From IMG/VR virus record IMGVR_UViG_2687453351_000002, positions 2,312-66,311 of that record: DNA of 64,000 bases. One strand, given 5' to 3'. The DNA comes from a virus. Below, piece after piece: positions 9,967-57,229 of this stretch. The first letter of the stretch is position 1. Each line of letters starts with the position of its first letter. The position numbers were made by a program, and so were the translations under genes. The notes beneath the pieces are model-generated. The model was not told the origin of the DNA. It saw only the letters and a program-made list of their open reading frames with translations, and ran no database searches.

Positions 9967-10004
9967 GTCGGATACCTCTCGGAATTGGGGAACGGTGGCG
10001 AGGC

Positions 10005-11327: not shown

Positions 11328-11345
11328 GTCGTTCTCCTGGTTGGC

Positions 11346-11383: not shown

Positions 11384-11407
11384 AGCAAGTTCCCGATCTC
11401 GGGACGT

Positions 11408-12328: not shown

Positions 12329-13629
12329 CAGTCCTCGTCCTCTTCGGTCCCGGTCTTGCTGTCGTCATCGCGGGTCATGTTGGGGGCGGGGTTGAGGCGG
12401 TCGCCGCCCTCGACGGGGGCGCGGCCGTCCTCGGCGCGGGCCTCGTTCGCGGTCAGGAACGGGCCGCCCACCGCCGCCTTCAGCGCGTCGTAGCGCTCCT
12501 TCGTCGTCGCCTGCATCAGCGCGTCGTAATCGTGCCGGAAGAAGAGCCCGGCCCGCCGTTCCGCCTCGGTCAGCACGCCGAGCGCCAGCTGCGCCTCGAC
12601 GAAGCCGCCCCAATGCAACAGGCAGTCGGTCTTGTAATCGATGGCCTGCTGCTGGCCGTTGGCCTTCACCCCGTGTTCCAGCATCTGCAGCTTCGAGGGT
12701 GGCACCCGGTAGATCGCGGCGATCTGCTCGCGGTCGAACTTGCGGCTTTCCAGGAGCTGCTGATCGGCGGCCGAGAGATCCAGCGACTTGATGTCGTCGG
12801 TGGCGCCGATGATCGGGATCCCGTTGGCCTCGGGATCGGTCAGCGCGTTGCGCACGCGGCGGGCATTGCGGTGCCAGGCCTCGTCATCCTCGTAGACATC
12901 CTCCATCTTCAGGACCGCGCGCATCTGCACCCCCGAAGCCGCCCGCGCCGCGGCCTCCTGACCGGCCAGCGCCAGCCCCACCGACTCGGCCGCGACCTGC
13001 AAGGGGCTGCGCCCGGTCCAGCCGTCCTCGGCCATGTAGCGCAGATGCACCATCGCCCGGGACGGCGCCCGGCGCTGGATCCCGGCCCCATCCTCGAAGG
13101 CATAGAAGCGCGCCCGGCCGTCGCGAAGCTCGGCGCAGAGATCGGGACGGATCACATCCAGAAGCGTCAGCTCGCCCGCGCCGTCGCGGGGCGCATAGGC
13201 ATAGCCCCGGCCGCGCAGCGCGAAGGCATAGACCAGCGCAAAACGCGCGAGACGGGCCGCCACGCCCGGGGCGGATTCGGTGTTCAGCAGATAGGTCGCG
13301 GCATGCTCGACCACCGGCTCGGCCCGGCTCGGCCCCATCCGCTGGTAGAGCCGCAGCGGCACCTTGGCGAGATCGCCCGCGATCACGTTGCAGCAGGCGA
13401 AGACCGTGGCATGACGCTGTGCCGCCAGCGGCGTCACCACCGGCAGCGAGCGCACCCGGGATTGCGTGCCCGCCCAGTGATCGCCGAACCACGGCGACGG
13501 GGCGCGTGTGCCCGAGGGCTCGACAGGTCCGGCCGCAGCCATGCTGGCCGTGACCGGCGGCTCGCGCCGGGGTTCGGGCCGGGGGGCCTCGGCTTTCCGG
13601 CCGCGCGTGAGGAAAGGAAGTCCGATCAT
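12328..13629 (-). CDS. Portal protein (HK97 family)
   Basis: VFACCNVIAGDLAKVPL, EQIAAIYRVPP, LTANEARAE motifs. Confidence 0.92.
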   Translation of the reverse strand: MIGLPFLTRGRKAEAPRPEPRREPPVTASMAAAGPVEPSGTRAPSPWFGDHWAGTQSRVRSLPVVTPLAAQRHATVFACCNVIAGDLAKVPLRLYQRMGPSRAEPVVEHAATYLLNTESAPGVAARLARFALVYAFALRGRGYAYAPRDGAGELTLLDVIRPDLCAELRDGRARFYAFEDGAGIQRRAPSRAMVHLRYMAEDGWTGRSPLQVAAESVGLALAGQEAAARAASGVQMRAVLKMEDVYEDDEAWHRNARRVRNALTDPEANGIPIIGATDDIKSLDLSAADQQLLESRKFDREQIAAIYRVPPSKLQMLEHGVKANGQQQAIDYKTDCLLHWGGFVEAQLALGVLTEAERRAGLFFRHDYDALMQATTKERYDALKAAVGGPFLTANEARAEDGRAPVEGGDRLNPAPNMTRDDDSKTGTEEDED

Positions 13630-15287
13630 ACCGTTGCCACGTCCCGTGCCTTGCGTTTGCCCGCCTCCGCCTCGGCGCGGCCGAGCGCCATGATCGCGGC
13701 CACCGCCGGATCGATCCGCCCCTTCGAGCGCGCCTTGTTGGGCTTGATGTTCTCGGCCGCATCCTCGTCGCGATGGACATTTCCCACCGCCCAGGCCAGC
13801 ACCGGATTGCCGCCATGCCGCAGCCGCCCCTGCGCCACCGCGCGCTCGAAGCGCTTCATCGGCGAGGACATCGAGGCATAGCCCTGGCCATGCTCGACCA
13901 GCGGAAAGCGCCGCTTGACCAGCTCCTTCGCCACATACTTCATGCCCCAGCGGTCATAGGACAGCTCGCGCAGATCGAAGCGCGCCCGGATCCATTCCAG
14001 CCGCTCGATCACCCGGTCCTCGTCGATCACGCCGCCGCCATGCACCTCCAGCCAGCCCTGATCGCGCCAGGCCACGTATTCCCGCTTCTCGCTCTGCGCC
14101 CGCGCGATGAAGCCCTTCGGCCCCGAGGGCAGGAAGGAATAGCTGACCAGGTAGACCTGCCCGTCCTTCGGGATCGCGATGCAGATCGAGGTCAGGTCGG
14201 TGGTCTTCGACAGATCGAGCCCGACCCAGGCCGGGCGGCCGTAAAGCGCCTCGGGCGCGAAGGGCTCGGCGCCCCTGTCCCAGATCTCGCGCTCGATCCA
14301 GGACTGCGCGCCCTCGGTCCAGAGGTTCATGTGCAGCCGCCGGAAGTTCGGCATCTTGCCCGAGATCACCGTGGCCTCGCGGTAAAGCTCGGCAAAGCGC
14401 TCCTCGCTGAAGGCGATGCCCAGGTTCGGGTTCGCCATCTTCCAGGCAACCGGATCGCCCACGTCGCAATCGCCAGGCGGCTCGGCGACATAGGCAAAGA
14501 AGCTGTCATCCTCGACATCGCCCCGCAGGACGGTCGCGGAGTATTCCCTCAGCTCGCCGCAGATCGAGGCCATGTCGGCGCCTGCCGTGGTGATCGCCCA
14601 GTCGATGGGCTGGGCGCGGGCGATCATCGAATTGACCACCACCTCGGCCAGTTCGCGGTCGGTCCAGCGGTGCACCTCGTCGCGGGCGACGAAGCTGGGG
14701 TTGATGCCATCGGCCGAGTTGCCATCGCGGCTGAGCGTCCGGATCGTGCCATTGGTGATCGCGGTCGAGATCAGGTGCTTGTTGTCGGTGTCCATGAAGG
14801 CCGAAAGCGCGGGCGCGGCCTTGATCATCCGCCGCAGCTCGCGGAACAGAAGCCCCGCCTGATCGCGCGTCGTCGCGGTGCAGAAGCCCTGGGGGGCGGC
14901 CTCGCCATCGAAGAGCTGGGTGAAGAGCATCGGCACCGCCGTGTCGGTGGTCTTGCCGTTCTTCTTCGCGACTTGGTGATAGGTGGTGCGGAACCGCCTC
15001 AGCCCGTCCTCCTGCTTCCAGCCGAAGACCGAGCCATGCCGGAAGACCTGCCAGGGCGTCAGCTCCAGCGGGCGGCCCGCCGCCGGACCCGTCGTGTGCT
15101 TGATCAGCCGGGCGAAGTTCAGCACCCGGCTTGCCAGCTTGCAGTCGAACCAGAGCCCGCGGTCGCGGCCGGTTTCCAGATCCATCAGATGGCGTTCGCA
15201 AGCGAGCCGCACCAGCGTGCCCGCGATCTCGCGGCCCTCGATCACATCGAGCGCATAGCGCGAGACCGGGTGGTCAATCGGGTCCAT
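13626..15287 (-). CDS. terL: Terminase large subunit
   Basis: VAKKNGKT Walker A, DEVH Walker B, GLDLS and RIDPAVA nuclease motifs. Confidence 0.95.
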   Translation of the reverse strand: MDPIDHPVSRYALDVIEGREIAGTLVRLACERHLMDLETGRDRGLWFDCKLASRVLNFARLIKHTTGPAAGRPLELTPWQVFRHGSVFGWKQEDGLRRFRTTYHQVAKKNGKTTDTAVPMLFTQLFDGEAAPQGFCTATTRDQAGLLFRELRRMIKAAPALSAFMDTDNKHLISTAITNGTIRTLSRDGNSADGINPSFVARDEVHRWTDRELAEVVVNSMIARAQPIDWAITTAGADMASICGELREYSATVLRGDVEDDSFFAYVAEPPGDCDVGDPVAWKMANPNLGIAFSEERFAELYREATVISGKMPNFRRLHMNLWTEGAQSWIEREIWDRGAEPFAPEALYGRPAWVGLDLSKTTDLTSICIAIPKDGQVYLVSYSFLPSGPKGFIARAQSEKREYVAWRDQGWLEVHGGGVIDEDRVIERLEWIRARFDLRELSYDRWGMKYVAKELVKRRFPLVEHGQGYASMSSPMKRFERAVAQGRLRHGGNPVLAWAVGNVHRDEDAAENIKPNKARSKGRIDPAVAAIMALGRAEAEAGKRKARDVATV

Positions 15288-15711
15288 CGAGTGTCCTCAG
15301 GATCTCGCCGAAGAGATCGCCTTGCCCGCCCGCGCTCATCCGCGCCTCGTCGACCGGCGTCATCCCGAAGCGCGCGGCGAGCTGGTTCATGGTGGCAATC
15401 GCGTCCTGGCGCTGGCCCCTGACCGCGCGCTTCTTCTGCTGCCGCCCGTTCCGGGTCTCGACCTCGTACCAGCTGCCGAAGGCCGCGATATCGCCGGTGA
15501 AGCGGATGACATCGGCCACCGCCTCGCAATAGACGGCGAAGGGGTCGTGAAAGGCCGGGTCGAGCCGCCGCTTGCCCGCCAGCACCGGCGCGAGCCGGTC
15601 CCAGGCGTCGCGGCCCTCGACGCTCATCCAGTCGGGCGCCTCGGGCACGGGCGCCGTCTGGTCGGCCTTCATCGGCACGACATTGTCGAGCTTCGGCTTC
15701 TGACCGCGCAT
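15274..15711 (-). CDS. terS: Terminase small subunit, P27 family
   Basis: LAARFGMTPVDEAR motif; precedes TerL. Confidence 0.88.
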   Translation of the reverse strand: MRGQKPKLDNVVPMKADQTAPVPEAPDWMSVEGRDAWDRLAPVLAGKRRLDPAFHDPFAVYCEAVADVIRFTGDIAAFGSWYEVETRNGRQQKKRAVRGQRQDAIATMNQLAARFGMTPVDEARMSAGGQGDLFGEILRTLDGPD

Positions 15712-15830
15712 CGGACCTCCCTAAGGGGCTTATAATCGTGGGCTTTTTTTGCCAATTCGGCCCGCGTAACAGGAAAGCTCCCATGCGCGGTTCCCGAGGG
15801 GGGCCCCGGATTTTTGGACACCCCCCGGTG

Positions 15831-16214
15831 TCAGTTGCGCCCGAGAACCTCGCGGGCGGTCTTGCGACTGTGGCACCTCTTGCAGAGCGCCTGCCAGTTC
15901 GAGCGATCCCAGAACTTTGCCCGGTCGCCCTCGTGCCGCGCGATGTGATCGACCTCGGCGGCCGGGGTCACCAGCCCGAGCCCCGCGCAATCGACGCAGA
16001 GCGGGTTGGCCTCGAGGAAGGCGGCGCGCGCGGTCTTCCAGGCGGGGCTGGCATAGAGCTTCGAGCGGCGCCGGATCTCCTCGGCCGTCTTCACCTTCGC
16101 CCGCCGCGCGCGGCCCCGGTCTATCCGCTCGGCCTCGTGCAGCTCGCAGAGCGCGGCGCCAGGGACAGCGAGGTCGTCGCAGCCAGAGGCCGCGCAGAGC
16201 TTGCGGATCGTCAT
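15831..16214 (-). CDS. HNH endonuclease (cos-cleavage accessory)
   Basis: CVDC...VDHI...NWQALCKRCHSRKT. Confidence 0.9.
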   Translation of the reverse strand: MTIRKLCAASGCDDLAVPGAALCELHEAERIDRGRARRAKVKTAEEIRRRSKLYASPAWKTARAAFLEANPLCVDCAGLGLVTPAAEVDHIARHEGDRAKFWDRSNWQALCKRCHSRKTAREVLGRN

Positions 16215-16233
16215 GGATGAGGCCTCCCGGAAC

Positions 16234-16270
16234 GCAAAGCGCCCGCAGCGGGGGGGTCCGCTCCGGGCGC
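16234..16270 (-). terminator. Terminator-like hairpin at head of late operon
   Basis: GCGCCCG..AGCGG/CCGCT..CGGGCGC stem followed by TTTGCGTT on minus strand. Confidence 0.55.
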
Positions 16271-16285
16271 AGCTTGGGTGACGGC

Positions 16286-16315
16286 ACTATGTCAACGGGG
16301 CTAGAGAAACGTCAA
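16286..16315 (-). promoter_or_regulatory. Candidate late promoter
   Basis: TTGACG-N18-CATAGT on minus strand; second TTGAC 20 bp downstream. Confidence 0.5.
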
Positions 16316-16409
16316 GAAAAAAGTTTCTGTGGGCGGGAGCGTCGAGGATTCAGGAGCAGACCTGAGCCCGGTCATATCGTGTCATCATAGCCACATCATG
16401 TGCCGCAGA

Positions 16410-17373
16410 TCACGTACTTCCGGGGCCGTTGAGATGAACCTCTCTAAAAATCAGCAGGGGCGTCAAGCTGTACGCTTCGGCTGGGCGACCAAGAATCGTC
16501 CGCACCAACGGCATTATTGATGACGCAATGGCGGCAACAAAGTACTCTGCTCCATCCGGCGAAATATCTCCCGCATCTTCTATGGAGAAATTGTCAGGCT
16601 TCGCGTCGAGCACTCCAAGAACCGCCCATTCCCCTGGGAACTTGACGCCGTGCGTCGCTGCAATGCTTGACGGTGGTGTAGTCAAGCCTTCCCGCAAAAG
16701 CGTGAACCATGTCCTAACCGGGCCGTCCACGTTCCCCTGAACCTCATGCGGAAACTCCGAGATCATATCAAGCATCAAATCAACTTCAGAGGGAGGCTTC
16801 TTATTCGGCACCTTGGCCGTTGTCTTCTCGGCACTTCGGCGCCGCTGGCGATTCTGGACATCAGGAAGCTGCCCCACGCTATGCCGAATGAGGGACTGCA
16901 CACTTTTCATTCCCCACATTTTCTGAATCATACCAAGATCAAGGATACTGAGACTTCCTGAAATAAGAACGATCTGACCAATATTGGAATGCGCTATATC
17001 TTTGCAGATTAAGCCCCTTTCACCCAAGGCATCGAGAAACTCTCGCGCATTCGCCCAAGTTGGATCATAGATGCGCGTAATATCTTCCCGATGCTGGCGA
17101 ACAACTTTCTCCGAGTTATCGTTTTTATACTTTGCAAATCCCGCGACTCCCGCCTCAACCTGAATACCTGAATACCTGAATACCTGCATCACTGTCTCGC
17201 CCCTCGGTTGCGGATCGCCCCTGTGATATTTCTTTAAGCGAGCCGGAAGGGTCGAACTGCGCAAGGAATGAGGCAATTCGGCGCGAATCCTGATATAAGA
17301 AGTCAAAGATGGAATCTGCGCTTAGTTTTTCTTGCTCCGCGCTTGATGTCTCGTCGCGTTTCTTCGATTTCAC
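16410..17373 (-). pseudogene. AT-rich accessory gene (~315 aa if repaired) frameshifted by an 8-bp tandem repeat; DUF6414-like from recollection
   Basis: 5' part (GTG 17373, DFLYQDSRRIASFLAQF) and 3' part (YDPTWANAREFLDAL) join in frame when two repeat units are removed. Confidence 0.7.
17158..17186. repeat. (AATACCTG)x3 plus a partial unit
   Basis: Units at 17163, 17171 and 17179, preceded by ACCTG. Confidence 0.95.
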
Positions 17374-17470
17374 GGTCAATGCCCTCCGCCTCTTTACGGA
17401 GCGCCTCACGCTTTTCGTCTGCCTCCTGGCGAAGCTTTCTGAAGCGCTTCAACCATCCAATTCGACACAT
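17303..17470 (-). CDS. Small basic coiled-coil protein, first gene of accessory pair
   Basis: MCRIGWLKRFRKLRQEADEKREALRKEAE...; overlaps the next gene; start uncertain. Confidence 0.45.
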   Translation of the reverse strand: MCRIGWLKRFRKLRQEADEKREALRKEAEGIDREIEETRRDIKRGARKTKRRFHL

Positions 17471-17592
17471 CTGGCGACCACCCGGCGAATGTTCGACTGG
17501 TATACGCATCGTAAGGACGCTCTCCGATTTGCCTAGCACTACCTGATGTCTGCTCAAAGAGTCCATCTATGTACTGATCTCCAGTCGGCCTT

Positions 17593-18276
17593 TTACACCC
17601 ACGGCCGCATCGGTGGCATGTTCCGGGTGACCTCGATCCGCGTCAGGTCCGCCCCCGTCAAAGCCGCCTGTATCGCCAGCAGATAGCCCCACCAGTCGAG
17701 ATATGCCCGCCGCGCGGCCGCGATCCGGGCGGGCGTCGGATCCCAGACGCAGGGCGTGAAGCGCACCGCGTCCTGGACGATCACGCCCTTGCGGTTGCGG
17801 CGCGGGATCTGCTGCCAGCCCTCGATCCCGAGCGTGGCGGCATCCGCCGTCTTCGCGTAGCGGCCCCAGCGGTTCACCGTCCAGTCTTCCGGCTTCAGCC
17901 TTGGCCGGGCGTCGGGCATCCAGTCGGGGGTGCGGCCCGCGCGGGCGAGATCGGCCACCAGCGTCGCCGCGTACCAGGGCAGCGTGTTCCGAACCACGGT
18001 CGCGATCAGCTCGGCATCGTCATGCGGGGTCGACCGGCCGCGGCTGGTGTCGACGCGCGCGCCCAGCTGGGCGCGTTCGAGGGCCACGTATTCCATGCCG
18101 AAGGGGCGCCAGCCGGTGCCGCCGACCGCTTCGATCTCGTCATGGTCGAGCCGGGCGCATTCGGTGCCGAAGGCCCATTCCAGCGCCGCGCGCACCGGCA
18201 TCGCGCGCCGGGCCGGGCGCTTCCGCTGCCCCTGCATCTGCATTTGCCTGTCCATCATCATCGCGCGATCCTGCAT
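17593..18276 (-). CDS. Putative late-gene regulator
   Basis: AGGAG RBS before ATG 18276; last gene of early-right operon, upstream of packaging genes; function inferred from position. Confidence 0.55.
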   Translation of the reverse strand: MQDRAMMMDRQMQMQGQRKRPARRAMPVRAALEWAFGTECARLDHDEIEAVGGTGWRPFGMEYVALERAQLGARVDTSRGRSTPHDDAELIATVVRNTLPWYAATLVADLARAGRTPDWMPDARPRLKPEDWTVNRWGRYAKTADAATLGIEGWQQIPRRNRKGVIVQDAVRFTPCVWDPTPARIAAARRAYLDWWGYLLAIQAALTGADLTRIEVTRNMPPMRPWV

Positions 18277-18331
18277 CTTGTGGCTCCTGGCGGGGTTTGA
18301 CCCCGTATGTTGTTTTTCGTTCTGGACGATA

Positions 18332-18668
18332 CGGCCCGACCGGCCCGAAACGCCCCCAGCCCGGCCCGAAACGGAGGCGGTCGCCGTGGCGCCGATCTCC
18401 CCATAACCTTCTGTCTTTCCTTGCCTCTTTTCTTCCTCCACGGCTTGAACGGCCCGAACGGCTTGAAAAACAGAGCTACGCGTAAAGACGGTTCTTCCCA
18501 TGGCTTTGCCCTCTATCTCGCGCGCACGCGCGAACCCCGGAATTTCGGGCCGCTCGGGCCGTTCAGGCCGGGATTTGGCTCGCAAGCCATTGATATCGCG
18601 TGTCGCCCCGCGCCCCTTGGTCGCCTTCGTCTCAGGCCGTTCCGCCGGGTTTCGGGCCGGTCGGGCCG
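18332..18668. repeat. Mirror-symmetric array of 9-bp CGGCYYGAN iterons; putative origin
   Basis: Six forward and six reverse copies; perfect 20-bp inverted repeat at 18332-18351 / 18649-18668. Confidence 0.8.
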
Positions 18669-18736
18669 GTGATCCGGGGCGGCCGGACGGCCGGAAGCCT
18701 CCGATGGATCGGAAACGGGGTGCGGGGTGCGGCGCA

Positions 18737-20542
18737 TCAGAACGGCTCGTCGACGGGCGCACCGGCGCCGCCATGGTCTCTGCGATCTGCCATCCGGGCC
18801 GCGAACTCGTCGGTGAAGCGCAGGCCGCGATAGCCGGTCGCATCGCGCTTGGCCGGGATGAAGCTCTTGCCGGTATGGGGATGGCGCCAGCGGCTGGCCT
18901 TCTGCTTGAGCCGGTTCGACACGGTGCGGCCGCCCCATCGGGTCTCGCCGCGATCCTCCAGCCAGAAGTTGAAGGCCTCGATCAGCTCGCGCGAATAGAT
19001 GAAGTCGGCCTCGGCGCCGGTGACGATGGCGCTCTCGGTCAGGAAGGCGCCGACCGGATCGCTTTCCTCGCGATACTCGGCCGTCGCCTCCAGCACCCGG
19101 TCGGGCGGGCGCAGGCCGCCCTCGAGGAAGTCGGTCAGCCCCGCGATCAGCCAGTTGAGGATGCCGGGCGCCTCGTCCCAGAGCTTGTTGGCAAGCTCCG
19201 GATCGCGTCGTTCCTCGGGGATCTGCACATCGAACGGGACCAGCAGAACCCGGCGCCAGATCCCGTCATCGGTGCCGCGGATCTCGGGCTTGTGGTTGCC
19301 GCTCATGGTCAGCTTGAAATACGGCGAGAACTCCAGGAAATCGCTGTGCAGCGCCCGGATCATCAGGGGCTCGCCGCCGGTCAGTTCCTTGATCAGCCCC
19401 TCCTGCAGGCGCTGGCCCTCGTCGGGTTCCGAGGTGCGCACGAAGCGCGCGCCCATCAGCGGGATCAGGTCGGGCGTGGCATCGCCGCCGCCGCGCCGGT
19501 TGGTGCCGGTCAGCGACTCGATCCGGGCCGTCGCCGCATAGGGGCCCAGCACCCGGGCGATGGTGTCGACCAGCACCGATTTGCCGTTGGCGCCGCCGCC
19601 ATAGAAGAAGGCCAGGCGCTGCATCTTGATCCCGGTCATCGAGAGCCCCATCCAGCGCTGGACGAAGTCGCGCACGGTGGCGTCGGGCAGGATCTCCTCG
19701 AGGAAGGCGTCCCAGCGCGGGGCTGTCGCGGTGCGGTCATAGGCGACCGGCATGATCTTCGACAGCAGATCGCCGCGCAGATGCTCGGGCTGGACGCGCA
19801 GCTCGGCCACCGGCGACATGCCCTCGGCCGCAACCGTCGAAAAGCGCAGCGTGCCCGACAGCGTGTTGACGGTCAGCGGATCGGCATCGAGATCCTCATA
19901 GGCCCGGGCAAGCCCCGGTTGCGCCTGCTCGATCATGTTGCCGATGGGGCCGCTGTTGCCCGCATTCTTGGCATGCGTCAGGCGCCGGCCGATCAGCGAC
20001 TTGCGGTCCTTCAGGATGGCCTCGATCGATCTCAGCCGGGCGCGGATGGTGCCGAGCTCGTCGTCGTGATCCTCGGCGCGTTCGGCCTCGGGCAGGGCGT
20101 CGAGCCTGTCGAAGCGTTCGCGCAGGCGGCGCTCCTCGGCGATCACCTTCTTCTCGGATTTGGTCGGCTCGAGGACCTCGACCTCCTGCTCGATCAGCGC
20201 CCAGATCCGCTGCGCCTTGCGCCGGACGGCCAGCTCGTCGGGATCCTTTTCCCAATGGGTGCCGGTCCAGACGAACCAGCCGACCCGGGGCACGAAGGTC
20301 AGATCCTGCCCGAAATGGATGCAGAAGCGCTGGCCGTTGCCATAATCGTTCAGCGGCTGTCCGGCCGCCGCCCGGACCGGCCCGAGCGGATCTTCGGGGA
20401 CGGTTCCGTCAGGGGGGTGCGGGGGTTCCGCGCCGCCGTCCGGGTCGTTCGGGGCGGTGTCGGGGTCCGGGATGTCCCCCATATCCACGTCCTCGGCCGC
20501 CGCGAATGTGGCGCGGACGCGGTCCAGCGGGTCGTCAGTCAT
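18737..20542 (-). CDS. P4-family primase/helicase (D5-like SF3 ATPase)
   Basis: LNDYGNGQRF, GGGANGKS Walker A, SGNHKPEIRGTDDGIWRR. Confidence 0.92.
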   Translation of the reverse strand: MTDDPLDRVRATFAAAEDVDMGDIPDPDTAPNDPDGGAEPPHPPDGTVPEDPLGPVRAAAGQPLNDYGNGQRFCIHFGQDLTFVPRVGWFVWTGTHWEKDPDELAVRRKAQRIWALIEQEVEVLEPTKSEKKVIAEERRLRERFDRLDALPEAERAEDHDDELGTIRARLRSIEAILKDRKSLIGRRLTHAKNAGNSGPIGNMIEQAQPGLARAYEDLDADPLTVNTLSGTLRFSTVAAEGMSPVAELRVQPEHLRGDLLSKIMPVAYDRTATAPRWDAFLEEILPDATVRDFVQRWMGLSMTGIKMQRLAFFYGGGANGKSVLVDTIARVLGPYAATARIESLTGTNRRGGGDATPDLIPLMGARFVRTSEPDEGQRLQEGLIKELTGGEPLMIRALHSDFLEFSPYFKLTMSGNHKPEIRGTDDGIWRRVLLVPFDVQIPEERRDPELANKLWDEAPGILNWLIAGLTDFLEGGLRPPDRVLEATAEYREESDPVGAFLTESAIVTGAEADFIYSRELIEAFNFWLEDRGETRWGGRTVSNRLKQKASRWRHPHTGKSFIPAKRDATGYRGLRFTDEFAARMADRRDHGGAGAPVDEPF

Positions 20543-21681
20543 TCTTCGCCTTCCCCCATCAGTACATCGTTGAGATCGCGGCCCTCGCCTGCATGGACGA
20601 TGGAGATCCGCGTGACGGACGGCACCCGGGCGCGCGCCCGGCGCAGCCCCGAGAGGAGCTGGGCGCGGGTGCTGCGCGGCTCGGAATCGCCGTCCTGGAT
20701 AAAGACCAGGTGCTCGACGCCCGCAGGCGGCAGCCAGGCCTGGAGATCGTCGAGATCGGGCACGCCCGCGAAGCGCATGCCATTGCCGCGGGTGATCCGG
20801 CGGCCCGCCATGTTGCCAAGCGAGATCCCGGCCCAGAAGGCGGCGCCGGGCAGGGCGCGGGCGGCCAGCGCCGAGAAGGTCGTCTCGATGCCTTCGCCCA
20901 TCACCATGGCGCGGGTGCCGCTGGACCGGGCCAGCCGGATCGCGCCGCCCTTGACCGAGCCCAGCGTCTTCTTGGCGGCGAGGGTCTCGCCCTCATGGAC
21001 GATCACCGCCTTGCCCTTGGGCTGGCCGAGGTCGAGCCAGGTGCGGTGGATGCCGCTGCCCCGGCCGCCCGGCGCCTGCACCAGGGCGACCATGGCCGGG
21101 CCGCGATGGATCTCGCGCCAGCGGCCCCGGTTGCCCTCGGCGGGCACCATATAGGGCAGGTCGGGATGGAAGCGGAGGCAGGCGGGCAGCTCGGGCAGCA
21201 ACGCGCGGGTGAGGCCGCGCCGGGCGAGATAGTCGCGCACCGGGCTGTCCTCGGCCGGGCGGGAGTCGTGCCAGATGGCGCGGGCCTGGGCGATGGCGTT
21301 GCGCCGGGCGGCCTCGGCCTGCCTGCTCCGCTGGTGCGCCTCTTTCTCGCGGGCGGCCTTGCGCCGGGCCAGCTCGGCGGGGTCGGTTTCCAGCTCGCGC
21401 GTGCCCATCAGCCAGTCGAGCGCGGCGCGGAAATCGCAGCCCTTGACCAGTTCGACCAGCGCGATGGCATCGCCGCCGCCGCAATGGCGGCAGTTGAAGA
21501 CGTTGCGGGCGGTGTTGATGCCGAAGCGGTCGCGGCCGCCGCAGACCGGGCAGGGGCCGACGCGCTCGATGGCCTGTGGCGGTTTCAGCCCGGCGATGCC
21601 GAGCCGCTCGGCCACTTCGCCGATGGGCAGCGCGCGGGCCTCGGCCAGTCGGGGATCCTCGCGCGGGGGCATGGCGCTCAC
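20539..21681 (-). CDS. Primase with Zn finger and TOPRIM (DUF7146-like)
   Basis: CPVCGGRDRF..CRHC, GIHRTWL, GEGIET, DGD. Confidence 0.85.
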   Translation of the reverse strand: MSAMPPREDPRLAEARALPIGEVAERLGIAGLKPPQAIERVGPCPVCGGRDRFGINTARNVFNCRHCGGGDAIALVELVKGCDFRAALDWLMGTRELETDPAELARRKAAREKEAHQRSRQAEAARRNAIAQARAIWHDSRPAEDSPVRDYLARRGLTRALLPELPACLRFHPDLPYMVPAEGNRGRWREIHRGPAMVALVQAPGGRGSGIHRTWLDLGQPKGKAVIVHEGETLAAKKTLGSVKGGAIRLARSSGTRAMVMGEGIETTFSALAARALPGAAFWAGISLGNMAGRRITRGNGMRFAGVPDLDDLQAWLPPAGVEHLVFIQDGDSEPRSTRAQLLSGLRRARARVPSVTRISIVHAGEGRDLNDVLMGEGEE

Positions 21682-21998
21682 GCCTTGCCGGTTTCGCGGC
21701 GCCAGCGCTCATGGGCATGGGCCGCGCGGGTCTCGAAGAAGCGGGCGACGGCGCTGCGCAGCCGCCAGTGGCAGTCGGAAAAGGTCGGGCCATCCCCGGC
21801 CCGGCGCGCGCGATCCATCGCCTCGATCTCGAAAGCCAGGCCGCAAGTCGGGCCGTCCGGAGCGACATGGGGGATGACGTCGAGCGCCATCGCCATGCGC
21901 CGCGCGGTCAGGTCGCGGTCCATCACCGGCGGCACCGCCAGCGCGGCGGCGGCCGCGATCAGCACCTGATCGGCGCGGGTGAGCGGGGCCTCAGCCAT
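21678..21998 (-). CDS. Hypothetical phage protein
   Basis: Coupled ORF MAEAPLTRAD... Confidence 0.55.
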   Translation of the reverse strand: MAEAPLTRADQVLIAAAAALAVPPVMDRDLTARRMAMALDVIPHVAPDGPTCGLAFEIEAMDRARRAGDGPTFSDCHWRLRSAVARFFETRAAHAHERWRRETGKA

Positions 21999-43749: not shown

Positions 43750-44931
43750 TCAGGCCTCCTTCTTCTTGCCGCCCAGCACGCCGCGCGGCGTGAGCGGGTT
43801 GACGTTGGTTTCGATGGCGTCGGAGTTGGCGGCGAACCCGCCCTGACCGGAGTAGTCCGCGGGACGGATCATCTGCTCGACGGCCTCCAGTTGCTCGACC
43901 GGCATGGCGGCGATCTGGGCGCCGGTCAGCTTGTTGGCGGCATTGGCCTTGAGCCGGGCCGCCACGTCATGGCGCCGCAGATGCTCCTGCACGCCGTTGG
44001 CGATCAGCTTGTTCAGGTCGGCCGCGTTGACCGCGATACGGCCGTTCGTGGCGGGCTTGGCCGCCTTGTCCGCGAACGGGGCAGGCGTGTCGTCGGCGGG
44101 TGCGTCAGCCGCGGGGTCGTCGCCTTCCATGGCGTCGGGCGCGGCGGTGCTCTTGCCCAGGGCTTCGACGAAGGCCGCCATCACGGCGCGATCCTCGGGG
44201 CTCATGCCCTGGATGGCCGCCAGTTGCTTCGCATCGAGCGCGTTGGCTTTCACCAGCGCCTCGGCCTGTTTCGAAATGTCCATGCCTTTGTCCTCGCATT
44301 GGCAGTTGGTGTTGAGGCCGAGGGCTTTGCCCACAACGGCCCATGCTTCGTTCACCTTCATGGCGAGCGGTCCTTTCTTGCTGTTGGTGCGCGTGCCGCA
44401 GCCGTCCGCGATGCTGCATGCCCCGATCTGACCGGGCAGCAGCGCCAGGTGGTCGGGCCGGATGTTCCGGTGGATCATCGAGTAGGGGCGGCCGTTGAAC
44501 TCGCCCGCCTGCGGATCGTCGTCAGCGAAATACCCGGTGCTGACCTCGATGCACTCGCCCGTCTCAAGCCGCTTCATGAGATCGCAGAAGCCGAGGCGGC
44601 ATGCCTTTTCGGTGTCGAGCCAAAGCTCGGCCTTGAGCTTCGCGCCCTCGGTGCGGGCGTTGAAGACTGTGCCGATGGTGTTGCACTCGATCACGTCCGG
44701 GCGGTTGGCGCTGATCGCCTGTCCCTGTTCCTCGGGATGCAGCACCGGCACCGGGCGGCCGTTCCACGCCTCGGGGAAGCGGCTGAACTCGGCCAGCGGC
44801 ACCAGCGCGCCGTTCAGGACGCCCTCGCAGATCATGACCACGGGCACCACGAGGTGATCCCGACCCTCGAATTGCTCGTGTCGGATACCCCCGGCGGGGC
44901 TGAAATTGGCGGTGATGCGGTGCAGCGACAT
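43750..44931 (-). CDS. DUF2213 prohead protease/scaffold
   Basis: EGVLNG, WNGRPVPVLHP, EVSTGY, PDHLALLP..GACSIADGCG. Confidence 0.85.
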   Translation of the reverse strand: MSLHRITANFSPAGGIRHEQFEGRDHLVVPVVMICEGVLNGALVPLAEFSRFPEAWNGRPVPVLHPEEQGQAISANRPDVIECNTIGTVFNARTEGAKLKAELWLDTEKACRLGFCDLMKRLETGECIEVSTGYFADDDPQAGEFNGRPYSMIHRNIRPDHLALLPGQIGACSIADGCGTRTNSKKGPLAMKVNEAWAVVGKALGLNTNCQCEDKGMDISKQAEALVKANALDAKQLAAIQGMSPEDRAVMAAFVEALGKSTAAPDAMEGDDPAADAPADDTPAPFADKAAKPATNGRIAVNAADLNKLIANGVQEHLRRHDVAARLKANAANKLTGAQIAAMPVEQLEAVEQMIRPADYSGQGGFAANSDAIETNVNPLTPRGVLGGKKKEA

Positions 44932-44947
44932 GGGCGCCCCCAAATGC

Positions 44948-44978
44948 AAAAAGCCCCGCGGCCGGGGGGCTGCGGGGC
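44948..44978 (-). terminator. Terminator downstream of MuF-linked accessory genes
   Basis: GCCCCGC...GCGGGGC followed by TTTTT on minus strand. Confidence 0.6.
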
Positions 44979-45019
44979 GTTGGTCGTCGGTTGTCGGTTT
45001 GCCCGCTGGGGGCGTCAGG

Positions 45020-45202
45020 TCATCCTGCGAAAACGTAGGCCACGATCAGGATCACGACCACAGCGCCGCCGCGCATCGCCGCGCCACGCCAGTCCTTGGT
45101 GCGGATCGTCTTCTTTGCGCCCTCGATTGTGCCACTTATCCCGTGGGACAAAATGGCGAAGACGAGGATCAGCACGATGATAAGAACGAGGATTTCGAGC
45201 AT
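45020..45202 (-). CDS. 60-aa two-TM membrane protein (moron)
   Basis: MLEILVLIIVLILVFAILSHG...GAVVVILIVAYVFAG. Confidence 0.6.
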   Translation of the reverse strand: MLEILVLIIVLILVFAILSHGISGTIEGAKKTIRTKDWRGAAMRGGAVVVILIVAYVFAG

Positions 45203-45307
45203 TGGCGCCCCTTCCATGGTATTGCGGCGCCAAATATGGAAGCAATTTCAAGGACGTTATAGAGCCATCTCACCCTGCGCGACAGTGCGGCGCAGCGCTG
45301 GCGGGCC

Positions 45308-45490
45308 TTACGACATGGCGTTCAGGGGCGGCTCGGGCGCAAGCTCAAGCTCTTCGTCGGTCAGCTTTCGCCCCCTGGCGACGGCCATGGCGCAAAGCTC
45401 GTCCAGCTTGCCAAGCACTTCGTCGGGCATTCTGCGCGAAGACGGGAGATCTCCGAACCGCTTGTAGTATTCCCGGAACACATCATCCAT
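45308..45490 (-). CDS. Putative immunity protein for MuF toxin
   Basis: 60 aa MDDVFREYYKRFGDLPSS..., start overlaps MuF stop. Confidence 0.55.
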   Translation of the reverse strand: MDDVFREYYKRFGDLPSSRRMPDEVLGKLDELCAMAVARGRKLTDEELELAPEPPLNAMS

Positions 45491-47318
45491 CTTCGCCGCC
45501 TCCGATGATTTCCTCGAACCGCTGTGACATGCTGGGCCAGAGGTGCTTGAAAGTCTGGTAATCGGCAAGGGTCTCGCTCCCATAAGCCTCAAACCAGTTG
45601 GCGAATGCTTCCGCCAATTGAGAGCCGGTGAAGGTCCGCGCCCCGATCTTCTTTGCCGCGCCTATGTGACGATCATAGGCCAGCCTTGTCTTATAATACC
45701 CCTCTCCGTGGCCGAAAGCGATGCGGATCTTGCCCGCCGTTCCTGCTTCGAAAACGTCTTGCATCCCCGCCAGAGGGCTATCGTGCAGCACACGGCGCCC
45801 GAAGCGGCTCGGCAGATCATGGAGCAGTTGATAAACGTCCTTCCGGTTCCAAGCCGCGACAAACGCGATTGCATCCGTGGGCCGGATCTCATTGACCCCA
45901 TAAAGGGCCTTTACGCCATCCTCCCCCAGCGGGGTCATTTCGTCCAGGATGCGCTTGGCATCGGTCACATATCCGCCCGCGTCCGCCGCGAGGATGGCCC
46001 GCCGGAACTCCTGTTCCGCGGCGGCCTCGTTCTTCGCGATAGTCTTTCGCAGCGCGGTACTGCCCGCGCGGTCATTCCTGAACATTCCGCTGCGGGCTGT
46101 TTCCAGGGCCTTGTTATCCGCGGCCAGCTCGTCGACTGCGGCGAACGATGCAAACCCCCGCCCGTCGCCAAGGTTCCGGTCGATGTGGTGCCCGAACTCG
46201 TGCCGGAAAGTCCGCTTATAGGCCACCGTTCCCGGTGTATGCTTGCCCATGGACATGCGGCCTTCGTGGTCCATGTAGGCGCCCGGCTTTCCCTTCACCA
46301 TGCCCTTCAGGTCCGGGGTCTTCTGGATCACCCGCAGCGCCGGTTCCGGGGTGCCGTCAAATGCGTTGTGGCTGTTCGCCCGCGCGACAGGCATGGCCTG
46401 CATGGCTTGCGCGGCCGTCATCGGGCGCCCTTGAGCCGCTGCTTGCGCTGCCGCGCTGGTTTCCCCGCGCCGGGTGCGCGGCACAATCGGAACCCATGCG
46501 CACCGGCAATTCGGATGCACCGGGATAAGGCCCCGGGCCTTGTCCAGGGTATAGGGGCCGCCGCGGGCCAGCGCCTCGCATTGCGGACACACCGCATTGT
46601 CACCGGCCGTCGCGAACTCGGCCTCAATCGCTACCCCCGAGACCCCGGCTTCCTGGTAGGCGTTCAGGCTGGCGTCGGCATGCGCCCGAATGACCTCTGT
46701 CCGCGCCATCATGCGGGCGCGGGTGATCCCGATCTTGTGCACCCGGTCGGTCAGCGCCCGGCTGATCTCGCGCGGCCCGAGCCCCTGGCTCAGCCCCTCA
46801 GCCAGTGTGCGGCTGATCTGCTGATCCATCGCGTCGGTGATGCCGCGCAAGTCGCTGTAGGCGCGCGTGTAGGCCAACGCCACGCGGTCCACATGGAACG
46901 GACGGGTGAATGCCTTCTCTACCCATTCCGGCGCCACAGGCGCGCCCTGCGCCCGCATACGGGATGCCGCCTGCGCGATCCCCTTCTGGTAGGCGTTGCG
47001 CACGTAGAGAGACGCCCACGAACGGCTGCCCGCGCTGTCCAGGCGCTCGCCGCGGCGGACCTCCAAGATCCCCGCGTCTTGCTGCTGCTGCAGCCAGTCC
47101 ATGAAGGCCGCGACCTTCTGGTCCGAACGGGGCTGGTCGAAGCGGCCGCGGTTGGTCTTGAGCCCGAACCCGTCCTGCCTGTCCACTTCCTCCCGGATCT
47201 TGGCCGCGAGATTGCGGAACCGCCGGGCGGCGGCGGCTTCGAACTGGCGGCGCAGGGTTGTGGTGCGCGTCGGATCGTATCGGTGGGCGGCGTTGACCTT
47301 CAGGCAGGCCTCACACAT
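45483..47318 (-). CDS. MuF head morphogenesis protein with C-terminal metalloprotease-like toxin domain
   Basis: RARMMARTE, CPQC, IPVHPNCRC MuF core, then ~330 aa with HEFGH and AEAFANWF. Confidence 0.85.
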   Translation of the reverse strand: MCEACLKVNAAHRYDPTRTTTLRRQFEAAAARRFRNLAAKIREEVDRQDGFGLKTNRGRFDQPRSDQKVAAFMDWLQQQQDAGILEVRRGERLDSAGSRSWASLYVRNAYQKGIAQAASRMRAQGAPVAPEWVEKAFTRPFHVDRVALAYTRAYSDLRGITDAMDQQISRTLAEGLSQGLGPREISRALTDRVHKIGITRARMMARTEVIRAHADASLNAYQEAGVSGVAIEAEFATAGDNAVCPQCEALARGGPYTLDKARGLIPVHPNCRCAWVPIVPRTRRGETSAAAQAAAQGRPMTAAQAMQAMPVARANSHNAFDGTPEPALRVIQKTPDLKGMVKGKPGAYMDHEGRMSMGKHTPGTVAYKRTFRHEFGHHIDRNLGDGRGFASFAAVDELAADNKALETARSGMFRNDRAGSTALRKTIAKNEAAAEQEFRRAILAADAGGYVTDAKRILDEMTPLGEDGVKALYGVNEIRPTDAIAFVAAWNRKDVYQLLHDLPSRFGRRVLHDSPLAGMQDVFEAGTAGKIRIAFGHGEGYYKTRLAYDRHIGAAKKIGARTFTGSQLAEAFANWFEAYGSETLADYQTFKHLWPSMSQRFEEIIGGGEDG

Positions 47319-48675
47319 GGCGCGCCGCGTTGAACTGGATCACGCCTTCGGCCCCAAGGTCGTCATCCTCGGCCACCTTGGGCTGCGCGGCCTTGTAACC
47401 CAGCGTCTCGCGGAACTCGGCGGGCGAAACGATCAGCTCCGCCCCCGGCGCGTTGGCATAGGTCGCGATGGCCTGCGCGTTCTTCTCGGCAATTTCGGCC
47501 CGCGCGACCTCGCCCAGCGTGTCGTTCTCGGGCCATGCGATGCCGTCCGCCCCGGACGGCAGGATGCCCAATTCCGTGCAGCGCGTCAGGAATGGCATGG
47601 CAATGCTCGGCCCGGCGAACTGCTCGCGGCGCTCCTCGACCCGGCCCACGAAATTGTTCTCGTCCTGGCTGGACGCCAGCTCGCCCGCCTCGCTGCCGAT
47701 CAGGATGCGCTTGGGAATGCCCGTGGCCCCGGCGATCATGTCGATCTGCTTGTCGATGTGGTTGGCCGGGTCGGCGCCTTGCAGGCCCGGGGCGATGTTG
47801 CTCGCGTCGACCCCGCGCGTCCGCAGCCAGCGGCGCAGGCCATGCTGCATTTCCTCGACCTGCGCCTTGAGGGCTTCCGCCTCGTCCGGGTTCCACTGCA
47901 CTTCCAGATCGGCCTTGAGGTGCATCAGCATGGCGACGTTCTGCCAATACATCTCGGCCGAGCCGCCCAGCAGCTTGTCCAGATCCATGAGCCTGTTCCA
48001 GACCCGTTCCAGGCGCGGCGTGCCGATGCTCTCGTCTTCGAGCGCCCGCTCCGCGATGTGGATCACGCGGCTATGGTGCACAATGAACGACTTCTGTCCT
48101 GCCCCGGCGCCGGTCCAGTTGACGCCCGAGGTGATCCGGTAGAGCAGCGGCCGGCCGAACCGGGGCGACTTCGGGTTGTCTTCCCACCGCACGATCTGCG
48201 CCGTGCGCTCCGAATGCGGCTGCACGTAAAGCAGGGTGAAGCGGTTGCCCCGCACGGGCTGGTCCATCGGCTGGCCGCCATCGAGGCCCAGCAGGAGGAC
48301 GCCATAGTGCCCAAGCCCGGCGAGCCGGTCGGCCCGGTGCAGGGCGCGCCAGATATGCAGGCGGGCATCGAGCTTGCCGAACGCCTCCCGCACCTCGTCC
48401 GGGCCGTTCACCTCCGGCGCCTCGCGCCAGGTGGCGTCCGGGTAGGCGTCCACGATCCGGGCGGCAATGTCCTGCCGCAGATAGGCGTCAACGTAGTCCT
48501 CTGGCATGAGGCTCAGCGGATAGCCGAGCGTCTCGTAGAGATCGCGCGCGCCGTTGAAGCTTTGCCCCGCGCGGCCCGCGAGGATCTTGCGGGACACGAG
48601 GGCGCTGCCCGTGTTCGCATGGATGGCAGGGGCCAGCGGCGCGCCGTCAGGCCCGAGAAGCGTGCGATCACTCAT
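47311..48675 (-). CDS. Portal protein (DUF1073 family)
   Basis: IAARIVDAYPDATWRE, ATGIPKRILIGSEAGELAS. Confidence 0.88.
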   Translation of the reverse strand: MSDRTLLGPDGAPLAPAIHANTGSALVSRKILAGRAGQSFNGARDLYETLGYPLSLMPEDYVDAYLRQDIAARIVDAYPDATWREAPEVNGPDEVREAFGKLDARLHIWRALHRADRLAGLGHYGVLLLGLDGGQPMDQPVRGNRFTLLYVQPHSERTAQIVRWEDNPKSPRFGRPLLYRITSGVNWTGAGAGQKSFIVHHSRVIHIAERALEDESIGTPRLERVWNRLMDLDKLLGGSAEMYWQNVAMLMHLKADLEVQWNPDEAEALKAQVEEMQHGLRRWLRTRGVDASNIAPGLQGADPANHIDKQIDMIAGATGIPKRILIGSEAGELASSQDENNFVGRVEERREQFAGPSIAMPFLTRCTELGILPSGADGIAWPENDTLGEVARAEIAEKNAQAIATYANAPGAELIVSPAEFRETLGYKAAQPKVAEDDDLGAEGVIQFNAARHV

Positions 48676-50030
48676 TACCAGGTCACTTTCGTATGGTTCG
48701 GCCCCAGCATCAGCTCGGTCAGCGCCCAGACCAGCGCGTCGGCCCGGTCGGGCGACCCCTCACCGATGAAGCCCGAGGCCGTGAAGTTGCAGAGCTGGTC
48801 TTCGAGATCGGGGAAGTCCCCGACATGGTGGACGCGGCCCTGTTCGTAGAGCGCGCTTATCGGCTCGGCCCGGACGACCTTGCCCCGGCTGGCGGAAACC
48901 TCTTTGAAGCTCGCGTCCTTGTCCGCGGTCGACACGGTGAACCGCACCATGTCCCCGCCGAAATTCCGCTCTCCGACGATCCGGTCGGCCCTGTGCCGGT
49001 GATAGAGATCGACGGCCCGGCGGCCCCACCCTTCAGGCGACAGGTTGCAGGTGCCGTCCTGCAGCACATAGCCGTGGTCGTTGAAGCCGATCCCGGCTGC
49101 AATGATCCCGATATCGTCGCCGCCGCCGTCGCCGCGCGTGCCCGAAGGGTCCACCGCGATCACGATCCGGCGCAGCTCGGGAGCGGCCGCCACCCGAAGG
49201 CTGTCGAGCCCCGGCATGGTCTTGCCGTCAGGGGACTTGCGGTCTTCCAGCGCCCAGAGCGCCCCGTTCACGTCGCTGGCCCACTCTCCCGCCTCGAACC
49301 GGAGCCGCTTGGCGGCCGACATCGAGGCCAGCACCTCGAAATACTCGGGCGGCAGGTTGTCGGCATTGTCGGCCGGGTTGACCCGCATTTCGGCATAGTC
49401 GACGGGTTTGGGAAGGGCCTCTTTCGTGCCGGGCTTCACCTTCGCCCGGAACAGTTGGTAGCTCCAGTGCAGCTTGGACGGCGGGTTGCAGTCGAAATAC
49501 GCCTTGAGCGTCAGGAACGCCCGGCCGGTTGCCGCCGCGATCTCGGGCGCCAGCGCGCATTTCTGAGCAAGCCGGGACATGGCCATTTCGACCGAGCCCC
49601 AGGGGATCTGGCTGCTCTCGTTGAAATAGAGCGTGGCATATTCCTGCCCGAGGATCTTCTCGACCCGCTCCTTGTCGTCCAGGCCTGCGATCCAGATCTG
49701 CGACCCGTTCGGCAGATCGACATAGAAGTCGGTCTTGTCCAACCGGACCAGCAGAGCCGGAAAGCAGAGCTTCAGCACCTTCGGCAGGGTGTCCGACCAG
49801 ACCGAAGTCTTGGCGTGGTTGAACCGGAACCGGAAGATCACATGTCGGGAGCCGGGCGCGTTGATGGCCCGCTGGATGATCGCCCGCACGAGGATGAAGG
49901 TTTTCCCCGAACGCGATCCGCCCCGGAGCATGATGTTCCGCGCGGGTCCCGCCAGCAGCCGGTTCGCCTCCCGCTGCTTCGGCGTAAGCTTCGCGATGGG
50001 CGGGCCGCCGTTGTGCCCGATGCCGCTCAC
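48675..50030 (-). CDS. terL: Terminase large subunit
   Basis: GGSRSGKT Walker A, IAVDPS, SPDRADALVWA. Confidence 0.93.
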   Translation of the reverse strand: MSGIGHNGGPPIAKLTPKQREANRLLAGPARNIMLRGGSRSGKTFILVRAIIQRAINAPGSRHVIFRFRFNHAKTSVWSDTLPKVLKLCFPALLVRLDKTDFYVDLPNGSQIWIAGLDDKERVEKILGQEYATLYFNESSQIPWGSVEMAMSRLAQKCALAPEIAAATGRAFLTLKAYFDCNPPSKLHWSYQLFRAKVKPGTKEALPKPVDYAEMRVNPADNADNLPPEYFEVLASMSAAKRLRFEAGEWASDVNGALWALEDRKSPDGKTMPGLDSLRVAAAPELRRIVIAVDPSGTRGDGGGDDIGIIAAGIGFNDHGYVLQDGTCNLSPEGWGRRAVDLYHRHRADRIVGERNFGGDMVRFTVSTADKDASFKEVSASRGKVVRAEPISALYEQGRVHHVGDFPDLEDQLCNFTASGFIGEGSPDRADALVWALTELMLGPNHTKVTW

Positions 50031-56541: not shown

Positions 56542-56578
56542 GATGATGATTGGCGTCGCGGATATGCTGTTCGCTGAC

Positions 56579-57229
56579 ATGGCTCCGCGAACCCCGATAT
56601 CAGCGCCCCTTAACGAGTGGCTCATTCAAGCTCTGGATCACTCCGGGCTGAGCCAGTCGGCTTTGGCCGAACTTCTTGACGCGCGAGTGCAGAAGAAGAT
56701 CGACCGCTCGATCATCAACAAGATGACACTGGGCAAGCGAACGATCTCGGCTGAAGAAATGCTGTTGATCTCGGAGATCACTGGCTTTGACCTACCTAGC
56801 GATACGGCTCGGATCGCTACCATAGCCATCGCTGGCAAGGTTGGCGCAGGCGCGCGGGTGCCCGTCTTCGACACCTACGAGAAGGGCGACGGGCCGCAAG
56901 TCGAGTGTCCGCCGGGGCTGTCGCCGCACAACATCGTGGCGGTGGAGATCGAGGGCGATAGCATGGAGCCGGTCTATTCGGCTGGCGATCTGCTGTTCTA
57001 CACGCGCTGGTCGGACGGAAGCGTGCCCAGCGAGGCCGTAGGCAAGCGATGCGTTTGCGAGTGCGAAGAGGGGCTAGGCTGGGTGAAGGTTGTTCGCCCA
57101 GGACGAGACCATGGCACCTTCGATCTGCACAGCTTCAACGACCAGACGCCGACGATGTACGGGGTCCGGCTCAAGTGGGCGGCACCGATCAAGCTGCATT
57201 GGCCAGCGGAGTTGGCGAGGAAGGTATAG
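56579..57229 (+). CDS. cI: CI repressor with S24 peptidase domain
   Basis: N-terminal HTH, VGAG cleavage site, GDSM and WVK catalytic motifs. Confidence 0.92.
   Translation: MAPRTPISAPLNEWLIQALDHSGLSQSALAELLDARVQKKIDRSIINKMTLGKRTISAEEMLLISEITGFDLPSDTARIATIAIAGKVGAGARVPVFDTYEKGDGPQVECPPGLSPHNIVAVEIEGDSMEPVYSAGDLLFYTRWSDGSVPSEAVGKRCVCECEEGLGWVKVVRPGRDHGTFDLHSFNDQTPTMYGVRLKWAAPIKLHWPAELARKV

Follow-up and report, generated by a model that had tools for sequence, protein, structure and literature searches.

A MuF head protein gene with a long C-terminal extension

The DNA analysed here, which we call the window, is a stretch of 64,000 nucleotides from a virus (IMG/VR record IMGVR_UViG_2687453351_000002, positions 2,312 to 66,311 of that record). 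On its minus strand lies a gene, P0001 (45483..47318), an open reading frame (ORF) of 611 aa whose product fuses a MuF-type phage head protein to a C-terminal domain that resembles zinc metallopeptidases, and directly behind it is a second ORF on the same strand for an acidic protein of 60 aa (45308..45490), referred to below as the partner. P0001 has the coding pattern GC3>GC1>GC2 (GC content at the third, first and second codon positions) with a GC3 of 0.80, in an element of about 68% GC, and there is an 8-nt overlap between its ATG and the stop of the portal gene that precedes it.

The N-terminal part of the protein, residues ~12-273 (46500..47285), is a MuF / SPP1 gp7-like minor head domain with the cysteines CPQC...NCRC. 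P0001 passes the curated cut-offs for membership in this family with both PF04233 (residues 166-274, E 8.6e-11, 43 bits against a cut-off of 29.6) and TIGR01641 (48 bits against 39.65, E 1.4e-12), and phrog_758, 'head morphogenesis', covers residues 12-287 (E 6.6e-51). The domain ends in HPNCRC (residues 268-273, 46500-46517). After it comes an Ala/Gln/Arg-rich linker, recognised from its sequence and outside every family model, at residues ~274-299 (46422..46499, with an approximate boundary), which includes AAAQAAAQ at residues 289-296. A preliminary description of the locus had the MuF core running to HPNCRC and an Ala/Gln linker after it; both are found at those places, and the three models confirm the MuF assignment.

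Fold of the C-terminal domain

The C-terminal domain takes up residues ~300-606 (45501..46421). A single-sequence search with residues 290-611 returned no match in Pfam, PHROG, NCBIfam or the PDB sequences. An AlphaFold2 model of the domain (312 residues), made from a 29-sequence alignment, has a predicted local distance difference test (pLDDT) of 95.7 and a predicted template modelling score (pTM) of 0.93. When this model was compared exhaustively with 48,161 PDB representatives using VIA-align, the top nine matches (all with Z >= 6) had the fold shared by anthrax lethal factor (LF), the PPEPs and MtfA, and nothing else scored above Z 5. The best match is the LF catalytic domain (1yqy_A, Z 9.3, 152 residues aligned, root-mean-square deviation 4.0). 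Next come PPEP-3 (Z 8.0) and the LF-like N-domains of Certhrax and LF (Z 7.3-7.5), a group that with the corresponding domain of edema factor (EF) spans Z 6.0-7.5. PPEP-2 and an LF catalytic-centre fragment (both Z 6.9), and 3dl1 (Z 6.4), which we take to be Klebsiella MtfA, are also among the matches.

Profile and language-model comparisons lead to the same group of proteins. LF is the sole match below E = 1 (E 0.0034) when a profile of the family is searched against all PDB sequences, and the alignment places HExGHxxD of the family on HEFGHAVD of LF and the helix (Y)gggnta-[Q/E]-aFAN on YGRTNEAEFFAEAF, with a downstream Pro common to both. The language-model neighbours of the domain fall in clusters named zincin-like or 'lethal factor (fragment)', whose members include Phage_Mu_F, Peptidase_M90 and ATLF. 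In libraries of predicted structures, the LF-type fold also forms the C-terminus of further head proteins (MuF, VG15 and min_cap2), of LXG/WXG100 toxins of the type VII secretion system (T7SS), and of polyvalent proteins. The preliminary description had proposed a structure search as a check, and its outcome, an LF/MtfA/PPEP-type zincin fold, supports the view that the ~310 aa at the C-terminus make up a separate zincin domain of this type, modelled with confidence.

The domain is larger than that of LF, with 312 residues in the model against ~207 in the aligned LF domain. The additional length includes a helical insert that is specific to the family and separates the two zincin helices of the core, at residues ~410-515 (45774..46091, approximate limits; model helices 122-206). 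The two stretches that match LF are ~150 profile positions apart in the query and contiguous in LF. Profile-against-single-sequence comparisons with hhalign (against E. coli MtfA and against the cargo domains of two other MuF proteins, L122 and L143, described below) aligned the HExxH helix alone, at low probability, and it is probably because of the large insert that they did not align more.

Conserved residues of the putative active site

Conservation was counted over 70 distinct related ORFs, at each position wherever the sequence covers it. The presumed active-site helix, HEFGHHID (46179..46202; H373, E374, H377 and D380, preceded by R372), aligns to HEFGHAVD of LF, and its HEFGH (residues 373-377, 46188-46202) lies inside model helix 66-84. 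R-H-E-x-G-H is kept in all 66 distinct relatives that cover the motif, so HExxH is not a chance motif here, and D380 is kept in 66 of 67. Further along is the block QDVFEA...FGHGEGYY (45693..45761), in which D521, H537 and Y541 are each present in 60/60 distinct relatives covering it; GHGEGYY corresponds to residues 536-542 (45693-45713), and Y542 is nearly invariant. The third conserved element is the AEAFANWF helix, residues 569-576 (45591..45614), where the HMMER profile alignment puts E570 on LF E735 and N574 on LF E739. Wherever covered, R372, H373, E374, G376, H377, D521, H537, Y541 and A573 (57/57) are invariant, and there are single exceptions at three other positions: D380A, N574D (N574 is present in 56/57) and P595S. 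Residues D521, H537 and Y541 lie in a region that has no counterpart in LF, made up of the ~100-residue insert (~410-515) and then the conserved block 520-542. These motifs had been pointed out in the preliminary description. Its distal GHG..YY and AEAFANWF are the elements at residues 536-542 and 569-576, and the range 46188-46202 that it gave for HEFGHHID is exactly that of HEFGH, while the full motif spans 46179-46202.

We take LF E735 to be the third zinc ligand and LF Y728, seven residues before this Glu ligand, to be the catalytic Tyr. The residue aligned to E735, E570 (45609-45611), lies in model helix 266-280. Among 57 relatives, position 570 is Glu in 26 and Gln in 31, and nothing else occurs there. 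Of the zincin signature that had been proposed for this protein, HExxH and a distal Glu, the HExxH stands, and the Glu, E570, is at the third-ligand place of LF and may be a ligand, but more than half of the relatives have Gln at that place. At the position of LF Tyr728 the window has a Phe, F563 (45630-45632), as do L010 and L015; nearly all Q-type relatives have Tyr, and the distant E-type relatives mostly have a gap, so that residue 570 and the Tyr728 position co-vary across the family. A maximum-likelihood tree has two changes at position 570, with an all-E clade set against a Q clade and with the E-type window and L010 nested within the Q clade (support 98/96 and 100/99). On the simplest reading of the tree, the history of this position would be a change from E to Q, followed by a reversal to E in the lineage of the window.

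With H537 and Y541 of the GHG..YY block invariant and position 570 varying between E and Q, the metal site may be wired in a way unlike that of a textbook gluzincin. The metal ligand that acts beside HExxH may be E570, or it may instead be H537 or D521.

One might also ask whether the domain is an enzyme at all, or an LF-like fold kept for binding or as a structural plug in the head interior. Inactive LF-like domains are among the best structural matches (4fxq, 3kwv, 6psn, 1xfv). A loss of catalysis would also agree with the Phe at the Tyr728 equivalent and with the third-ligand site, which is Gln in more than half of the relatives. However, the inactive LF-type domains (the N-domains of LF, EF and Certhrax) are not known to keep HExxH, and the family of P0001 keeps R-HExxH in every relative that covers it, together with D521, H537 and Y541, at identities down to ~23%. 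Such conservation across divergent relatives and a deep tree argues for a working active site, and we consider a non-catalytic domain very improbable.

Rarity of the domain family

Relatives of the domain are few. Among 1.84 billion cluster representatives, HMMER run exhaustively picked out 37, mostly proteins of 590-730 aa, and a word-indexed search through 5.8 billion clusters gave four beyond the window's own protein. With tblastn, the domain had no match in 50,697 deposited phage genomes, and a search of genome contigs with the single protein gave one distant match, in a metagenome-assembled genome of Ellagibacter. A search of IMG/VR gave 89 relatives, and the best 80 of these 89 were taken as loci. 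A significant PF04233 match precedes the domain in 7 of 10 diverse full-length relatives, which indicates that the domain family is essentially a MuF cargo.

No PHROG reaches past residue ~322 of P0001. Because of this and the lack of a match in the phage genomes, and given that Ct_MAD, the C-terminal MuF-associated domain of Proteobacteria (Jamet et al. 2017), occurs in one third of the extensions of proteobacterial MuF proteins, we judge it unlikely, on these indirect grounds, that the domain is identical with Ct_MAD. The domain and the partner are a new sequence family, both very rare and both without an existing model, in an overall design that is already known.

A small partner gene

The partner ORF (pI 4.65, with a coding-like GC3 of 0.75) starts at an ATG 5 nt before the MuF stop, an overlap of 8 nt, and its GGAGG Shine-Dalgarno sequence (45499..45503) lies within the last MuF codons, 8 nt upstream of that ATG. 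An iterated hidden Markov model detects the partner immediately behind the gene in 56 of the 88 loci with the domain. In each case it is on the strand of the MuF gene and ends 160-250 nt past the MuF stop, and these 56 loci include some of the deep E-type branches. Every assembly locus first looked at had a partner homologue directly behind the MuF-peptidase gene, in L004 as an uncalled gene, and the partner also follows two short forms and a split version of the gene (L171). The family members are 56-73 aa long with a median pI of 4.35, share the motif Y..(F/Y)(G/P)..PD.R and keep a Pro in their tails, and they are acidic where the domain is mildly basic (pI ~8). An AlphaFold2 model of the partner (pLDDT 80) has three short helices and an extended tail of low confidence, and the partner has no match in Pfam or NCBIfam and no fold match in the PDB.

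The split version (L171:3187-5374) consists of a 278-aa MuF gene, a 372-aa peptidase gene that overlaps it by 23 nt, and a 64-aa ORF, an arrangement that may be a frameshift artefact. If genuine, it implies that the domain can act as a polypeptide of its own.

The partner is most likely an immunity or inhibitor-like protein. One way in which it could inhibit is as a pseudo-substrate. Its helical head and disordered, conserved tail with a hydrophobic last residue make it a candidate for such a role, in which it would plug the cleft of the peptidase until packaging. This could be combined with a re-wired zincin, in which the third ligand and the catalytic Tyr would come from the insert region and not from the Glu helix, a proposal made because position 570 toggles between E and Q and because D521, H537 and Y541 are invariant and come from the family-specific insert. 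We regard this combination as a possible but rather doubtful account of the locus.

A second way to explain a small gene in this place is a classical competition toxin with an immunity protein expressed in lysogens. Virions would intoxicate non-lysogenic neighbours, and the 60-aa protein made in lysogens would protect these lysogens from superinfecting particles, a scheme that Jamet et al. (2017, PMC5576092) describe as their model b. A C-terminal cassette with a small downstream ORF is the architecture of polymorphic toxins and their immunity proteins, and the C-termini of LXG/WXG100 T7SS toxins are among the fold matches in AFDB. Against this, a crude scan for promoter-like sites found none in 44800-47500, so the partner has no promoter-like site of its own there, and it is coupled to the MuF stop in a late head operon, from which expression in the lysogen would not be expected. 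Peptidase cargo is, moreover, expected to be only moderately toxic (Jamet et al., PMC5576092). We think it unlikely that competition of this kind is the function of the pair.

Exchange of the domain and partner on MuF backbones

Between the window and P0003, the MuF parts are 25% identical over 118 aa (E 0.003), while the C-terminal domains are 42-44% identical (E 1e-67) and the partners 45% (in a multiple alignment). Over 32 comparable loci, the global identity to the window is 0.19-0.30 for the MuF part, 0.26-0.49 for the C-terminal domain and 0.20-0.70 for the partner. The divergence of the partner correlates with that of the C-terminal domain (Spearman 0.61) slightly better than with that of the MuF part (0.51).

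In the converse comparison, which is the clearer of the two, we took 80 IMG/VR loci whose MuF part is 37-97% identical to that of the window. The domain is present in one of the 80 (L091, a near-identical broken copy) and the partner in none. With L091 set aside, the other 79 loci (MuF part 37-62% identical) have neither. Most of these 79 are bare MuF proteins of ~300 aa and the rest have other cargo, such as ART-like domains (L127, L153, L160), a P-loop domain like that of (zeta-toxin-like) kinases (L152), a ParB-like domain (L156), a compact LF-like domain with HExxH...Yx6E (L122, L143) and a different HExxH domain (L170). Since the partner accompanies the domain in 56 of 88 loci and is found in none of the 79 relatives of the backbone, the two behave as an exchangeable cassette, and exchange of this kind is what defines the cassettes of polymorphic toxins described by Zhang et al. 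(2012, PMC3482391) and by Jamet et al. (2017). Three features of the MuF polymorphic toxins of Jamet et al. are found here: a C-terminal extension that varies among related MuF proteins, a small downstream ORF, and a prophage location.

These results also bear on the idea that the peptidase serves the phage particle itself, by cutting its own polypeptide (for example at the Ala/Gln linker) or proteins of the head interior, either in the capsid or after ejection. For the metallopeptidase (MPTase) domains in polyvalent proteins of phages, P1 DdrB among them, Iyer et al. (2017, PMC5512222) suggested autoproteolysis as one of the functions, and in our model residues 300-333, just past the linker, are predicted with confidence (pLDDT 96-98) and may pack on the domain. 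But an enzyme acting in cis needs no dedicated, co-evolving small partner gene, most of the close MuF backbones function without any C-terminal domain, and in L171 the peptidase and MuF are separate genes. The prophage also has a head protease/scaffold gene of its own, of the DUF2213 type (phrog_530/2229). Self-processing therefore seems to us an improbable main function for the domain.

Some of the loci in this comparison are of interest for other reasons. L009:2082-4281 and L091 (IMG/VR UViG_2751185755_000006) represent a copy of the gene in another genome that is 94-97% identical and intact to about residue 562. Past that point it continues into unrelated sequence beside a lipoprotein-like (perhaps spanin-like) ORF. 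It seems to have lost the partner ORF along with the genes for head and tail, which makes it a decayed prophage copy. Small acidic ORFs (pI 4.2-4.6) that are unrelated to the partner family overlap the MuF stop in L122 (2766-2960), L143 (5540-5773) and L170 (5141-5407), and those of L122 and L143 have in common a Cys-rich C..C...CAAFP motif. The varied cargo in these uncultured phages (L127, L152, L153, L156, L160, L124, L166), including extensions of more than 1000 aa, would be good material for surveying what proteobacterial MuF proteins carry.

Genome context

The genes around P0001 are those of a phage head module on the minus strand, in the order large terminase, portal, P0001, two small ORFs, DUF2213-type protease/scaffold, decoration, major capsid, neck and tape measure. 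The large terminase gene is at 48675-50030 and the portal gene at 47311..48675 (PF06381, E 5.9e-38; phrog_146, E 3.1e-62), so that P0001 directly follows the portal gene, as members of the MuF family do. After the partner ORF comes a 65-aa ORF with two hydrophobic helices (45020-45217, minus strand). A GC-rich hairpin with a T-run at 44952-44971, just ahead of the DUF2213 protease/scaffold gene, looks like a terminator, which is odd within a head operon.

The source record is classed as a provirus in IMG/VR, and the window has a gene for a CI-like repressor (HTH_3 and Peptidase_S24, 56543-57229) with genes for an ERF recombinase and SSB close by. Given the provirus class and these genes, the phage is temperate. 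Elsewhere in the window, at about 3100-21700 on the minus strand, there is a second series of genes in the same direction with a strong coding GC3 bias.

Proposed role and relation to known systems

The explanation that we favour, with some reserve, is that P0001 encodes an effector metallopeptidase that is packaged in the virion, injected into the host and restrained by the 60-aa partner. The MuF domain would place the fusion inside the capsid beside the portal, and the flexible Ala/Gln linker would join it to its cargo, a putative zinc metallopeptidase with an LF/MtfA/PPEP core and a helical insert. Translated by coupling from the same late mRNA as the fusion, the partner would bind the protease and hold it silent while virions are assembled. 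Upon infection the fusion would leave the capsid along with the DNA, and the protease would then cleave one or more host proteins early in infection. Its target could be part of the growth machinery, in which case the protein would be a toxin, or it could be defence or regulatory proteins, in which case it would serve takeover of the host. The substrates of LF, the PPEPs and MtfA are unrelated, so the target cannot be deduced from the fold.

Published work on related proteins is consistent with the first steps of this scheme. MuF proteins are located in the head interior next to the portal (PMC5512222), and gp44, the MuF protein of phage 80alpha, is an ejection protein according to work cited in PMC12323379. 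The view of the preliminary description, a metalloprotease-like zincin at the C-terminus of a MuF head protein, is borne out by the fold, by the related backbones that are bare or have other cargo, by the conserved small partner gene and by the temperate provirus.

Several observations weigh against the favoured explanation. The best Z, 9.3, is a moderate value for a model made mostly of helices, and Foldseek searches of the domain model against the PDB and the Swiss-Prot AlphaFold models returned noise only, so that of the two structure searches VIA-align alone brought up the LF-type fold. The Pfam family ATLF (PF07737) has no match at E <= 1 in P0001 or in any of 29 family members. MPTase-PolyVal (PF18818) has none in P0001 and sub-threshold matches in 3 of the 29 relatives (best E 0.0064), too weak for membership, and Peptidase_M90 is absent or below its cut-off for the domain. 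We nevertheless assign an LF-type fold despite the moderate Z, because the family profile and the language-model neighbours agree with it. The Gln in 31 of 57 relatives at the third-ligand site and the Phe where LF has Tyr728 mean that the chemistry may differ from that of LF or be weak. There is also no obvious need of immunity during lytic growth, so the partner could instead be a chaperone or a packaging factor.

Among known systems, the closest in organisation are the MuF polymorphic toxins. Zhang et al. predicted the use of MuF as a toxin carrier, and with it this architecture, in 2012. In the set of 191 MuF toxins reported by Jamet et al. (2017), metallopeptidases are the cargo of ~20%, and a small ORF comes after the toxin gene in 89%. 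Like these toxins, P0001 has a MuF domain after the portal gene, an exchangeable C-terminal cargo and a small downstream ORF, in a temperate prophage. It differs from them in its cargo, a very rare domain that none of the toxin models catalogued by Pfam, PHROG or NCBIfam matches and that is missing from the deposited phage genomes. Those MuF toxins that are characterised in the literature that we found are of ppApp-synthetase (adenosine 3'-pyrophosphokinase) types, whereas the cargo of P0001 is peptidase-like, and we found no experimentally characterised MuF-borne protease in the literature.

With LF (peptidase M34), PPEP-1/2/3 and MtfA (M90), the domain shares its best-matching fold, the HEFGHxxD helix, the downstream A-[E]-x-F-A helix and the later conserved Pro. 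In contrast to them it matches no ATLF or M90 model significantly; it is ~100 residues larger than the aligned LF domain and has D521, H537 and Y541 in addition, and it departs from LF in its Phe at the Tyr728 site and, in most relatives, the Gln at the third-ligand site. It is also fused to a phage head protein, presumably with bacterial targets. The MPTases of polyvalent proteins (PF18818) are another point of comparison, as they were unified with LF by profile methods, have HExxHxxD variants among them and show insertions that separate the two helices of the core (PMC5512222). Like the domain of P0001, they are tied to LF by profiles alone; MuF is among their partner domains, and they are predicted to be packaged and injected. 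P0001 differs in having two domains where those proteins are large and multi-domain, and in its dedicated small partner gene, which is absent from their description. The domain, with its LF-type fold, fits the description of phage MPTases by Iyer et al. (2017).

As genome annotation, the locus is ordinary, another MuF protein with a cargo. What is new is the sequence family, its large insert, the three extra invariant residues and the E/Q toggle. The peptidase cargo of MuF proteins may act as a toxin, in takeover of the host or against its defences, or in self-processing (PMC5576092, PMC5512222), and a 312-aa domain with a 60-aa partner in a temperate proteobacterial prophage is a compact, well-folding two-gene system in which to test this. 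Within the family, the natural variation between E and Q at the presumed metal ligand provides a ready series for probing the function of the site.

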